This document shows positions 3,586 to 11,800 of a DNA stretch of 64,000 nucleotides, piece after piece (position 1 is the stretch's first letter; every line of letters starts with the position of its first letter). The notes under the pieces were generated by a model. The model did not search any database and was not told the origin of the DNA. It saw nothing but the letters and a program-made list of their open reading frames with translations. The position numbers were made by a program, and so were the translations under genes. Source of the DNA: an uncultured delta proteobacterium (GTDB taxonomy: Bacteria > Myxococcota_A > Polyangia > Polyangiales > Polyangiaceae). The DNA is taken from contig CAWJCS010000002.1 in NCBI GenBank assembly GCA_963841435.1, positions 864,001-928,000 of the forward strand, in the 5' to 3' direction.

Positions 3586-3589
<4 letters not shown>
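2105..3589 (+). CDS. TIGR02266-like PilZ protein with one TM helix and Pro/Ala-rich tail
   Basis: RKDPR...DVSRGGMFI...GRVVW...GMGVKF. TM segment LVLIVLGLAVVGGGIFMV. Low-complexity C-terminus. Confidence 0.85.
3376..3562 (+). repeat. Coding tandem repeats (18-bp PKP[V/P]AA units and 24-bp PKPTATAA units)
   Basis: Repeated gcgccgaagccc units and gcacccaagccgac units. Confidence 0.75.
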
Positions 3590-5504
<1,915 letters not shown>

Positions 5505-5529: not shown

Positions 5530-6324
5530 TCAGCGGCGCGAGACCGAGCGCGCGCTCTGGGCGTCGGCGAGGGCTCGCTCGACGAGTGCTTGCATGGCCT
5601 CGTACGGTAGCGCGCCCACGACGAACCAATCGTTGACGAAAAACGCAGGGGTTCCTTCGACGCCGCTCGCGAGCCCCGTGTCGATCTCCCGATCGAGGCG
5701 CGCCTCGTGGACGCCCGCCGCCATCGCCTGCGCGTAGCGCGCGGGGTCAACGCCCTCGCGTCGAGCGAGCGTGTCGATGAGTGCGTCGTCTAGGCCCTGC
5801 GCCTGGGCGTCGAAGAGTCCGTCGTGCATGCGCCAGAACGCGCTGCTGCCACGTTCGACGTAGACCTCGTGCGCCGCCGCCGCAGCGCGTCGGGCGTGCG
5901 GGTGCATGGGCAGCGGAAAATCGCGCCAAACGATGCGAACGGCGCCGCCGAATTGCGCCTCGATCGCGCGCAGCACCGGCACGGTGCGCGCGCAGAACGG
6001 GCATTCGAAGTCGCTGAAGACCTGGATTGTCACGCGGGCACCCGCGGGTCCGCGCGCGGGCGCGTCGGCGTGCGACGCCGGCACGCGCTCGGGGGCCACG
6101 CGGGCGGCGAACTCCGTGGGGTCGAGCGGCACGGCAGCGCCTTCGGGCGCTTCGCGGCCGCGCTCGTCCGGAGCTCCTTCGAGCAAGAACGGCGCGTCGG
6201 GATCCACGACGGACGACGCGCTCGGGTGGCGCGCCGGGGGAGTCTCGCTCCCCCGGCAACCGCCGACGAGGAGCGCGTGGGCCGCCGCGAGGGCGACGGC
6301 TCCACGCGCCACGGCTCGTCTCAT
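5530..6324 (-). CDS. DsbA-family thioredoxin-fold protein, probable lipoprotein
   Basis: FSDFECPFC, WRDFPLPMH, GTPAFFVN. Signal peptide ending VGGC. ATGA overlap with the upstream gene. Confidence 0.9.
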   Translation of the reverse strand: MRRAVARGAVALAAAHALLVGGCRGSETPPARHPSASSVVDPDAPFLLEGAPDERGREAPEGAAVPLDPTEFAARVAPERVPASHADAPARGPAGARVTIQVFSDFECPFCARTVPVLRAIEAQFGGAVRIVWRDFPLPMHPHARRAAAAAHEVYVERGSSAFWRMHDGLFDAQAQGLDDALIDTLARREGVDPARYAQAMAAGVHEARLDREIDTGLASGVEGTPAFFVNDWFVVGALPYEAMQALVERALADAQSARSVSRR

Positions 6325-8268
6325 CCGCCGGCTTCCTTGAGAGCCTTGTTGATGAGCTTCTTGAAAGCAGCCGCGGGTTGCGCGCCGCTCAAGAAGTAGC
6401 CGTTGATGACGAAGCCCGGCGTACCACCGATGCCCGCCTTGTTGCCGACCGCGCTGTCCGAGTCGAGCTTGGCTTTGTGCTTGTGGGAGTCGAGCGCCGC
6501 CTTGAACTTGTCCATGTCGAGACCGATCGATTGCGCGATCTTCTCGAGCTGCGGTCGCTCGATGCCCTCGCCGCCTTGCGAATCGAAGAGCTTGTCGTGC
6601 ATGAGCCAGAAGCCCACGTTGCCCTTCTGGGCGAAGGCTTCCTGGGCGGCTTCACTGGCGAGCGGCGCGTCCTTGTGGAACGGCAGCGGCATGTGACGCC
6701 AAACCCAGCGCACCTTGGTGCCGTACTCCTTCTCGAGCTCCGCGAGCGTAGGCTCCACGCGCTTGCAGAAGGGGCACTGGAAGTCCGAGAAGATCTGGAT
6801 CGTGACCTTCGCGCTCGCCGGGCCCTTCACGGGGCTGTTGGCGTCGGGCGGTGGCACTTCCTTCTTCTCGGGCGGCGGCGGCTCCTTACCTTCCTTGACG
6901 ATCTCCTCGTAGATTTTCGCGCGCGGCACGCCGCGAGCGAGCACGGCCTTGGCCTTGGCGAGCTGATCGTCGATGGTCGCCTTGAACTTCTCGAACGGCT
7001 GCGCGCCGCTCAGGCGCACACCGTTGATGAAGAAGTGGGGCGTGCCGCGGGCCTGGAAGTCGGCCGCCTGATCGACACTGGCGTCGATCTTGTCGGCGAA
7101 TTTGTTGCTGTCGATGGCTGCCTTCACGTTCTCCCAGCCGAGGCCGAGCTTGTCGGCGATCGCCTGGAGGTCCGTGTCCTCGAGCTTGGGCTGGCTTTCG
7201 AACAGCGCTTCGTGCGCATCCCAGAAGCCCTTGTCGCCCTTGGTCTTGTAGGCCTGGCGCGCGAGGATCGCCGCGGGCTTCGCACGCGGGTGGAACGGCA
7301 GCGGATTGTCCTTCCAGACGATGCGCACGTCGTTCGGGTAGGCCTTCATCACCTGCTTCATCGTGTCTTCTACGCGCTTGCAGAAGGGGCACTGGAAATC
7401 CGAATACTCGATGATGGTGACGAGCGCGTCACGGGCTCCCGTTACCGGATCGTCGGCGGCAACCGGCACCTTCCACACGCTCGTGTCCTCCTCCTCTTCG
7501 GCCTTCTGAGGCTTCGGCGTGTCGGGCTGTGCGGTCTGGTTCTTGTTGGTGAGCTGAGGGTACACGTCGAGGGGTTTCACGCCGCTCGCGACGAGCTTCT
7601 GCGCTTCGGCGAGCTGCGCGTCGATGACCTCCTTGAACTTGTCGAACGGCTGCGCGCCGCTCACGGTCACGCCGTTGATGCGGAACGCCGGGGTCCCGTT
7701 GGCGCCAATCTTCTTGGACAACGCGAGGTCTTCGTCGACCTTCGCGGTGTACTTCTTGGAAGCGAGGGCTTCCTTGAATTTGGCGGAGATCGACGCCCGA
7801 GGCGACCGCCCACTTCTCGAAGTTGGCAGCGTTCAGGTCCTTCTGGTTCGAGAAGGCGAGGTCGTGGAACTTCCAGAACGCGTCGCTGCCGCCCAGCCCG
7901 AAGACGGTGGCGGCGGCGTCGTGCGTGGGACGCGCGTCTTTGTGGAAGGGCAGGGGGTTGTGCTTCCACACGATGCGCACCTTGTCGGGCCCGTAGGTCT
8001 CGCGGACCTGCTTCATGGTGGGCTCGACGCGGCTGCAGAACGGACACTCGAAGTCGCTGATCTCGACGATCGTGACCGGCGCGTCGTTCTTGCCCCAGAT
8101 GGGGTCGTTGGTGGTGACGGGGACGCTCGCGGCGCTGTGATCGAAGGCGGCGGAGCCGCTGCCCTCGGCGCTGATCTCGACGCCCGTCCGGCGATCGACG
8201 CCCCACATGAGGAACATGCCGGCGATGAAGCTCAGCAAGAACCCGACGATGGCGGTTCCTTTATTCAT
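6321..8268 (-). CDS. Triple-domain DsbA-family protein (apparent +1 frameshift at ~7785)
   Basis: Three SDF[E/Q]CPFC / PLPFH / GTP repeats split over ORFs 7429-8472 and 6321-7721. N-terminal TM anchor MNKGTAIVGFLLSF with a GGAG RBS. Confidence 0.88.
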
Positions 8269-8403
8269 GACGTTTCTCCAAAGTTCGATTTGGGTTTCTG
8301 GTGGATGAAGCTCTGAGCCTCGGTGCGGTCGGGAGCCGGCGCTCGCGAACGGGCCGAGGCAGGGGGCGCCGGCCCGAAGGGCCAGCGCGGCGGCGAATGG
8401 GCT

Positions 8404-8439
8404 AAAAACGAGCCGACGCCACGTGTCAGCGACGGCTCG
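8404..8439 (-). terminator. Intrinsic-terminator-like hairpin between the leader ORF and the dsbA operon
   Basis: The mRNA reads CGAGCCG-U-CGCUG-ACACG-UGGCG-U-CGGCUCG-UUUUU. Confidence 0.6.
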
Positions 8440-8501
8440 AGCACCCGGGGGATCGCGCGCATGCGCCGGCACGCCTCACGATCGGCTTCCCCGGGCGTGT
8501 T

Positions 8502-8921
8502 TCAGCCGCGCGGCGGCCGGTAGGGCGTGTCGCGGACCGCGATCGGAGGCGGCCCGTCGTTGTCGGTGGGCTCGAGAGTAGACCCCGGGGGGTCGGCAAG
8601 CCCGCTGAAGGTCACGGGCACCGCGCGAAGTGGAGCGCTCGTGACGGTCGTCGTCGGTGAGCTGCGGTGACCGGGGAGCGAAGTGGTCGCGAGAGGGGAG
8701 CCCTTCGGACACGCATCCGCCGCATCGAGGACCAGCCCTCGATCAGGAGTACCAATCGGCGGGGCGATGATGGAGCGTCCATCGTCACTGCACATGGGCA
8801 CCGCCGCGCGCGCTGCGCTGCTGGCGAGCAAGCAACCGAAGAGCGCCAAGAGCGCAGGCAAAAGCCGGTGCAGCCCCTGTGGGGTCCGAGGGAGCGACGG
8901 GAGCGGAGAGCGTGACGCCAA
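8502..8921 (-). CDS. Small secreted hypothetical protein with two Cys and C-terminal RPPRG (candidate arrest/leader peptide)
   Basis: Signal peptide [23 protein letters not shown], then VPMC-x26-C, a Pro/Ser/Thr-rich linker and the end DTPYRPPRG. The start (TTG 8921) is uncertain. Confidence 0.65.
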
Positions 8922-9079
8922 AGCCTTTAGGACCGGGATTCTACCTTCGGGGCTCCGTTTCACAACCGAGCCCGGGAGATGGAACCCTTCTCGCCCTCCT
9001 CCCATTCCGCCCGGGGAGCACCTTCGCCCGGCCAGCAGCTTTCTTTGCCTACATTGTACGACATTGGCACCATGGCCCC

Positions 9080-11800
<2,721 letters not shown>

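Follow-up and report, generated by a model that had tools for sequence, protein, structure and literature searches.

An open reading frame (ORF) of 139 codons lies co-directionally upstream of two dsbA-family genes on the reverse strand of a 64,000-nucleotide (nt) stretch of DNA from an uncultured member of the Polyangiaceae (contig CAWJCS010000002.1, positions 864,001 to 928,000; this whole stretch is called the window below). A preliminary description, made from the letters of the window, had proposed that this ORF encodes a leader peptide with an export signal, two cysteines in the mature region (C-x26-C), a 63-residue linker and the end YRPPRG-stop, and that a ribosome stalled at this end might sense disulfide formation and control dsbA. 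Every one of these elements was found, as were the two dsbA-family genes:

8502..8921 (-): leader ORF, TTG start, 139 amino acids plus TGA stop
8805..8921 (-): signal peptide, residues 1–39, with a basic N-terminus, a hydrophobic core and A-R-A (Ala37, Ala39) followed by AVPMC
8709..8792 (-): Cys pair module, P-M-C44 ... A53-P54 ... C71 (C-x26-C)
8520..8708 (-): low-complexity linker, 63 residues, Cys71 to Arg135
8505..8519 (-): candidate arrest core R135-P136-P137-R138 plus G139, with the stop codon at 8502..8504
6321..8268 (-): membrane-anchored DsbA with three CPFC thioredoxin-fold domains (MNKGTAIVGF...; Thioredoxin_4 5.2e-54, DSBA 1.4e-48)
5530..6324 (-): second DsbA-like gene with a lipoprotein-type N-terminus (LVGGC; DSBA 5.7e-20)

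The codons of Cys44 and Cys71 occupy 8790..8792 and 8709..8711, and RPP is encoded at 8511..8519. Cys44 and Cys71 are the only cysteines of the mature region; a third, at residue 30, is inside the signal peptide, whose probable cleavage site was placed by the A-x-A rule. The stretch after Cys71 is rich in proline, serine and threonine, and the peptide ends in Y-R-P-P-R-G-stop. AlphaFold2, given a 40-sequence alignment, predicted a single helix at residues 17–39 and coil for the remainder, with a mean predicted local distance difference test (pLDDT) of 68.6 and a predicted TM score (pTM) of 0.30. The linker had no secondary structure in this model (pLDDT 56–69). This is moderate evidence, from a shallow alignment, that the mature part of the leader is non-globular. 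No Pfam model (E <= 0.1) and no NCBIfam model matches the leader peptide. A lipoprotein reading of Cys44 was considered and rejected, as V/A-P-M-C does not fit the usual lipobox rule.

The codon signal of the window copy is weak. Its G+C contents at third and second codon positions (GC3 and GC2) are 0.77 and 0.66, near those of the adjacent spacer, while neighboring genes have a GC3 of 0.84–0.88. No Shine-Dalgarno (SD) sequence precedes its start, and the leaders of relatives likewise have no obvious one. Because homologous open frames recur across genomes despite the weak codon signal, sequence comparison confirms the leader as a genuine family-wide gene. A single-sequence search of 41 related genomes found alignable open frames, and all 12 loci that were fetched, the window locus included, end in RPP plus 2–3 residues. 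When 201 genomes of the same GTDB family, belonging to 89 genera, were searched with a 12-sequence profile, 72 genomes from 32 genera had a leader match. A 40-sequence profile found the leader in 67 of 90 sampled genomes of that family and in 1 of 210 genomes from other families of the order, this last match being marginal. A search of 5.8 billion proteins returned 64, all of them unnamed or labeled 'hypothetical protein' and none with a Pfam domain; these proteins were called independently, and every one has the Cys module and RPP at most 12 residues from its end. The leader is also carried by cultured relatives, in named Sorangium and Minicystis records (Minicystis rosea), whose loci were gathered with the DsbA N-terminus as the query. 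Longer leaders occur in large-genome relatives (loci L073–L085 and the named Sorangium records L107, L108, L110, L112 and L124). In these the Cys module is present twice, the additional copy (VPVCEDD..IVAPP..C) being N-terminal; the end is YHPPR-stop or similar, and spacers of 300–430 nt follow.

What has been conserved in this family is narrowly defined. Members of the 40-sequence alignment are only 20–40% identical to the window peptide, and just seven columns are invariant in all 40: C44, A53, P54, C71, R135, P136 and P137. Seven further columns (A37, A39, P42, M43, P83, R99 and R138) are conserved at 90% or more. Spacing was measured in 75 unique mature sequences; these had been gathered by motif, and the counts are conditional on that selection. 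The distance between the two cysteines ranges from 20 to 33 residues and is 27 in 42 of the 75. From Cys1 to [R/H]PP there are 88–101 residues (89–95 in 71 sequences), and from Cys2 to the second Pro 64–73, with a mode of 67. The linker keeps its length tightly and its sequence poorly. The P-M-C motif, the second Cys, the linker length and the terminal RPP, whose conservation the preliminary description had put forward as a check, thus prove to be the most conserved features of the family.

The residue preceding PP is R in 64 of the 75 sequences and H in the other 11, with the H forms including named Sorangium and Minicystis records, and the residue following PP is R in 66. The context upstream of the core is conserved as [V/I/L]-[Y/F/D/E], often with G-F some 9 residues earlier. 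Beyond PP, the tail has 1–3 residues in 71 of the 75, 1–8 across this whole set and 1–9 overall, nine being found in locus L064, and its sequence is variable. Because the tail varies in both length and sequence, RPP is tied to the stop codon and not to the carboxylate, which fits a stall site better than a C-terminal sorting signal or PDZ ligand. When loci were picked by profile score, [R/H]PP was found near the stop in 30 of 30, and again in all 11 of loci L062–L072. Among 16 weaker profile matches, 12 have [R/H]PP, and four (L075, L081, L082 and L083) have no leader recognizable by the patterns used. Across 40 loci, R-P-P is encoded with all four CGN and all four CCN codons, and because these codons vary synonymously, the comparison indicates selection on the peptide. 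The four RPPx codons have a GC3 of 0.656, compared to 0.805 in the rest of the leaders, and CGA, CCA and CCT are enriched at RPPx relative to the other Arg and Pro codons of leader and dsbA (Fisher p of 1e-5, a nominal value that is overstated, as the sequences are related).

The link to dsbA is equally regular. In all 12 of the first loci, a dsbA of the MNKGTAIVGF type lies 136–236 nt downstream of the leader. Synteny with this gene was found by a strict pattern in 38 of 40 loci, and the other two (L037 and L039), in which the DsbA N-terminus is a variant, were confirmed by eye. The expectation that the leader would be syntenic with a multi-domain dsbA has therefore been borne out.

Our next question was whether the same C-terminal end occurs on other peptides. 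When we scanned the genome that contains the window for ORFs ending in [x][YFDEW][RH]PP plus 0–4 residues, 21 were found. One of these, besides the dsbA leader, combines a good coding signal with a Cys-rich body (contig C6, 277205..277555, + strand). It has a hydrophobic N-terminus, the sequence HHETC...CPPGCPRCHC, a 46-residue linker and the end PFRPPRLAA-stop, and the genes downstream encode a CusB/HlyD-type adaptor and then an AcrB-family RND pump. Relatives of this metal-type leader (CPPGCPxCHC; loci L169 and L170) were found in 42 of the 151 family genomes searched. At each of 25 loci the peptide ends in [VILPH][YFE]RPP[RK] plus 1–7 residues, with the last Cys of CxxxCxxC 44–50 residues before the Arg. 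For 17 ORFs downstream of metal-type leaders, the assignments were outer-membrane efflux (11), CusB/HlyD (3) and HMA P-type ATPase (1), with 3 lacking a Pfam hit. The DUF2946 model of Pfam, to which CruR belongs, matches neither the dsbA leader nor the metal-type leader, and the metal-type leader has no match to any other Pfam model either (E <= 0.1).

A sister family of the order has a third, Cys-rich leader family (L195–L214, L150 and L123), present in 58 of the 88 genomes searched. The motifs of this leader family are C-x-C, C and W-C-x7-C, and it ends in RRV[ED]RPPR directly at the stop in 20 of 20 loci, the second Pro always lying 56 residues after the last Cys. In 16 of 16 examined cases a membrane-anchored CPFC DsbA is encoded ~105 nt downstream. 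In this sister family, RNAalifold pairs the leader codons 9–13 before the stop with the dsbA AUG and first codons; 92% of cells in this helix are paired, with no compensatory change, and the 3' side is invariant, which leaves no variation to judge by.

Three apparently unrelated exported, sensor-like peptides thus share one end, and the genes that follow each of them appear to match the chemistry of the putative sensor: a Cys pair is found with DsbA, and a Cys/His cluster with metal efflux. That three different sensor-like leaders carry it is the strongest argument for RPPR being a portable functional module and not part of a fold. The last sensor Cys is about 67, 46–52 and 56 residues from the second Pro in the three families. 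By this geometry, a stall at RPP would in all three leave it at the periplasmic opening of the translocon or just past it.

Published arrest peptides provide a close precedent. Small secreted ORFs with RAPP or RGPP motifs are reported to be enriched in front of genes of the DsbA family and genes with a thioredoxin domain (Fujiwara et al., EMBO J 2025, PMC12992588). For SLIV_27375 of S. lividans, a peptide with four transmembrane (TM) segments and a conserved Cys pair that is encoded in front of a gene with a thioredoxin domain, arrest was shown (PMC12992588). The statement in the preliminary description that no arrest peptide linked to oxidative folding was known is consequently out of date: the idea of such a link is already in print, what was demonstrated there being arrest and not redox sensing. 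In stalls of the RAPP class, the P site is occupied by the third residue of the motif and the A site by its fourth. The Arg is irreplaceable, while the Ala can be replaced by Gly and, less well, by Ser, Asp or Pro (PMC12992588). The ApdP variant A132P gave almost wild-type arrest in B. subtilis, and selections from random libraries yielded RxPP with x being G, A, S or P (PMC12992588). The RAPP-like motifs listed earlier are R/Q/H-[A/G]-P-P, RAGP, RAPG and RPPP (Fujiwara et al. 2024, PMC10987492). It has also been reported that DsbA-dependent periplasmic folding of PhoA relieves a SecM stall, and that ~50 extended residues bridge the peptidyl-transferase center and the periplasmic exit of SecYEG (PMC7513700).

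The string 'RPPR' is absent from the main text of PMC12992588, and in PMC10987492 'RPP' occurs once, inside RPPP. Literature searches returned no paper containing both 'RPPR' and 'ribosome stalling', and nothing relevant on Sorangium, DsbA and leader peptide. The supplements of PMC12992588, one file excepted, contain no 'DsbA', 'Polyangi' or 'Sorangium' by term search; the lists in those supplements of RAPP/RGPP ORFs preceding DsbA genes may be informative about how near the published peptides are to the present family. RAPP/RGPP leaders before DsbA genes were therefore already known (2025), and what is new is the non-canonical RPPR/HPPR core common to three leader families of Polyangiales.

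Like the ApdA/ApdP/RQH family, the dsbA leader is a small co-directional ORF (<300 amino acids) upstream of an envelope-homeostasis gene, with an N-terminal signal or TM segment, an Arg/His plus Pro-Pro core a few codons before the stop, and a poorly conserved region between sensor and core. The alternation of R and H before PP has also been published for that family (PMC10987492). It shares with SLIV_27375 a conserved Cys pair and a target gene with a thioredoxin fold, and differs from it in having one cleavable-looking signal instead of four TM segments. The main difference from the RQH family is in the core, [R/H]-P-P-R here versus R-[A/G]-P-P there, and in the arrest, which has been demonstrated for those peptides, while the present leader is known from its sequence. 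The proposed logic resembles that of SecM, MifM and VemP, in which the stall of an exported nascent chain is relieved by the machinery encoded downstream, giving feedback, and in SecM the stall is also a few codons before the stop. Those peptides, however, respond to translocation or insertion, and their effect is direct, in that the stalled ribosome opens a short hairpin that sequesters the SD. In the present proposal the signal is the formation of a disulfide, the spacer is 120–430 nt long, and masking of the ribosome footprint brings no consistent change in the predicted access to the SD. CruR (DUF2946, Bordetella) and CutF (Rhodobacter) are likewise small exported or membrane ORFs, with Cys-based copper sensing and a proline-rich C-terminal stalling motif, and the metal-type leader of Polyangiaceae (CPPGCPxCHC ... 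[YFE]RPPR) looks like an analogue of these. They differ in that CruR uses RAPP and CutF a proline-rich end, and in the targets, which here are DsbA genes or genes for RND pumps, outer-membrane efflux proteins or a P-type ATPase. In the TnaC-tnaA system, the ribosome stalls at termination near the leader stop with free tryptophan and blocks the loading of Rho, and the spacer is ~200 nt. A stall near the leader stop and a spacer before the regulated gene are also features of our proposal, but the leader here is exported and the spacers show no enrichment of C-rich, G-poor sequence.

We suggest that the product of this ORF is a Sec-exported regulatory leader peptide, neither an enzyme nor a structural protein. 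The C-terminal [V/I/L]-[Y/F/D/E]-[R/H]-P-P-(R) would slow or arrest its own translation one to a few codons before the stop, as RAPP, RGPP and RAGP do. During such a stall ~67 residues would separate Cys2 from the peptidyl-transferase center, so both cysteines would already be periplasmic. DsbA would then close the 28-residue Cys44–Cys71 loop outside SecYEG, and this would pull on the chain or block its back-sliding and release the stall. When oxidizing capacity is short the stall would last longer, and expression of the downstream dsbA would go up, with the stalled ribosome acting either by remodeling the structured 120–430-nt spacer or by shielding it from termination. The geometry appears compatible with release of this kind, and the suggestion that the linker is long enough to span tunnel and translocon stands, with 64–73 residues between Cys2 and the second Pro compared to the ~50 needed (PMC7513700). 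The conserved residues are, judging from the alignment, those that the model needs. The gene family itself, its anatomy, spacing and synteny, and the portability of the RPPR module can be read from the sequences. A stall of some kind at RPP seems likely to us, and the full model, in which the stall at RPP is released by disulfide formation and controls dsbA in cis, is evenly poised.

Several observations weigh against this model. The stall, its release by oxidation and its coupling to dsbA are what we infer from the features above. The conserved cysteines, their spacing and the synteny are equally expected of a small periplasmic partner of DsbA. As the preliminary description had already remarked, RPP is not the canonical RAPP: the core is [R/H]-P-P-R, which fails the defining R-[A/G]-P-P spacing by having nothing between R and PP, and an alignment as R-P-P, which places Arg in the A site, gives that site a residue other than Pro or Gly. 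The core would fit the RAPP class only when read as R-x-P, with x being Pro and the A-site residue being one other than Pro. Read in this way, it agrees with the partial tolerance of Ala-to-Pro changes in published mutagenesis and with the library selections (PMC12992588), which speaks for the model. RPPR is also not avoided in the proteome of this genome. Among 2,674 proxy genes it occurs 52 times against 39 expected (ratio 1.33), and its permutations 60–70 times, while RGPP (0.49) and RAGP (0.47) are depleted about twofold. Strong under-representation in proteomes is one of the marks of the RQH class. Since RPPR is not avoided, any stall must depend on the upstream context.

The remaining points against the model concern the region that would have to couple a stall to dsbA, for which two features were annotated in the window:

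8938..8965 (-): sigma-70-like promoter, TTGTGA, 16 nt, TAGAAT; a consensus match only, ending ~17 nt upstream of the TTG
8269..8501 (-): structured spacer, 233 nt, with a terminator-like hairpin at 8412..8430 followed by the T run TCGTTTTTAG

A scan of 8100..9300 yielded no promoter-like site other than this one, where 50 shuffles gave an expectation of 0.0; its place directly upstream of the leader, with none in the spacer, is a point in favor of the model. Such a promoter would leave the leader mRNA with a 5' untranslated region of ~10 nt that has no SD. The fold of 8255..8530, comprising the end of the leader and the spacer, has a z of -3.27, and only 1 of 200 shuffles folds as well. Three spacer hairpins are kept in six close relatives, with at least one double change in 14 of 39 pairs, and the last of them ends 3–5 nt before the SD.

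Family-wide, however, where the spacer between leader and dsbA is 120–430 nt long, no consistent coupling device was found in it. An Rfam scan of 8100..9200 (E <= 1) gave no match. Terminator-like hairpins were found in 16 of 38 spacers under loose criteria, at inconsistent positions, and are thus not a feature of the family. Unmasking of the SD in the manner of SecM was examined with the partition function in 38 loci: the predicted dsbA SD is ~0.5 unpaired before masking, and masking the footprint of a ribosome at RPP gave a mean change of -0.002, with the value rising in 3 loci and falling in 2. Compared with coding controls, the spacers show no excess of C-rich, G-poor (rut-like) windows (21 of 38 in the comparison with dsbA and 14 of 38 in that with the leader). 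In a count of spacer 6-mers only SD and GC-rich hairpin words were enriched, with no promoter-like consensus, and the SD is the sole word common to spacers across the family. There is also a weak hint that dsbA may have an mRNA with its own 5' end, arising from a promoter or by processing. In three of four runs, Sorangium-like metatranscriptome contigs have their start 59–63 nt before the dsbA ATG; contigs of this kind come from relatives and show neither strand, level nor true transcript ends, and no run covered as much as half of the Sorangium stretch. These starts, from three different studies, fall at L110:1240–1301 (a Sorangium locus). Another RNA contig covers the leader and 290 nt of spacer at the same locus, and the gap in contig cover at 1178–1241 of that Sorangium stretch proves nothing.

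A conserved unpaired box, TCTGCAACATCATTCG(T/A)AACAGGAAAC, lies ~55–85 nt upstream of the dsbA start in six same-genus spacers (alignment columns about 150–185). It was not found family-wide, and it could be a promoter of an unrecognized type or a protein- or RNA-binding site.

We weighed the disulfide-released arrest against three other explanations. The first, which we consider unlikely but not negligible, is that the leader is an ordinary small, disordered periplasmic partner of the adjacent DsbA, perhaps its dedicated substrate, its redox partner or a trans-acting regulator, with RPPR serving as an interaction or processing motif and no stall taking place. The conserved synteny, the signal peptide and the Cys pair would all suit a client of DsbA, and the lack of RPPR avoidance in the proteome, the failure to find an RNA switch and the possible separate 5' end of dsbA mRNA all point in the same direction. 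It is difficult, however, to see from this explanation why the distance from the motif to the C-terminus varies from 1 to 9 residues and yet stays within a few codons of the stop, or why the same end is found on a Cys/His-rich peptide before metal-efflux genes that have no link to DsbA. The region between Cys2 and RPP keeps its length and not its sequence and is predicted to be unstructured, and published RAPP/RGPP leaders of like design are proven to arrest (PMC12992588).

The second explanation accepts a real stall at RPP and denies that it senses disulfides: the leader might be a SecM-like monitor of Sec translocation, or might tether the mRNA for co-translational membrane insertion of DsbA, with the Cys pair present for another purpose. 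All of the known Sec/YidC monitoring substrates do combine a signal or TM segment with a C-terminal arrest (PMC10987492, PMC7897499), the downstream DsbA has an N-terminal membrane anchor, and the lack of an SD-unmasking switch would suit tethering. We nevertheless think this improbable. Both cysteines are invariant in 40 of 40 sequences, a different Cys-rich sensor precedes dsbA with the same module in the sister family, and the metal-type leader couples a metal-binding-like motif to metal-efflux genes, so that the sensor matches the target each time. The third explanation, a chance ORF in high-GC intergenic DNA between divergent genes, can draw on the spacer-like codon composition and the missing SD, but is refuted by the alignable open frames in 67 of 90 family genomes, the invariant residues with varying synonymous codons and the 64 independently called public proteins.

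What makes us favor an arrest leader, short of proof, is that the module is portable, that it is anchored to the stop codon and that R alternates with H. The interpretation in the preliminary description is partly supported and has gained from the conservation, the synteny and the recurrence of the module on two unrelated leaders; the tests for an RNA switch were inconsistent and did not help it. A more general claim, which we hold with rather less assurance than the model for the window leader, is that [Y/F/D/E]-[R/H]-P-P-R may be a new, lineage-specific arrest core of Polyangiales carried by at least three sensor peptides. This would make the dsbA leaders the first natural monitors of oxidative folding, in which a disulfide loop mechanically releases the ribosome and thereby sets the level of DsbA.

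Two further observations concern the locus itself. Compared to four relatives, the three-domain dsbA of the window has one extra base near 7785, which breaks it into two frames. The proteins of these relatives align in frame -1 to about residue 160–167 and in frame -2 from about residue 162–166, and the insertion can be placed at about 7782–7788 (-), where the window has CTCCGCC and the relatives have CTCGCC-type sequences. Codon bias is strong in both halves; the assembly may be in error here, or the gene may have been inactivated recently. On either side of the locus is a Ser/Thr protein kinase gene, at 8879–11800 (+) and 3586–4872 (+), and the one divergent from the leader is syntenic, as open frames, in same-genus loci.

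To our knowledge, feedback control of the disulfide-forming machinery is poorly understood beyond a few envelope-stress regulons, and the arrest peptides that we know of have so far been proven to sense translocation, membrane insertion, small molecules and, in the case of CruR, copper. None of the three leader families described here would have come up in searches that look for R-[A/G]-P-P, and the RPPR/HPPR core, if it does arrest, would widen the sequence definition of arrest peptides that is used in genome-wide searches. The presence of the dsbA leader in cultured strains, among them those behind the Sorangium and Minicystis records, makes the idea directly testable. If it is true, a stall released by a disulfide would give these bacteria a direct readout of DsbA activity, a natural counterpart to the engineered force-profile experiments.

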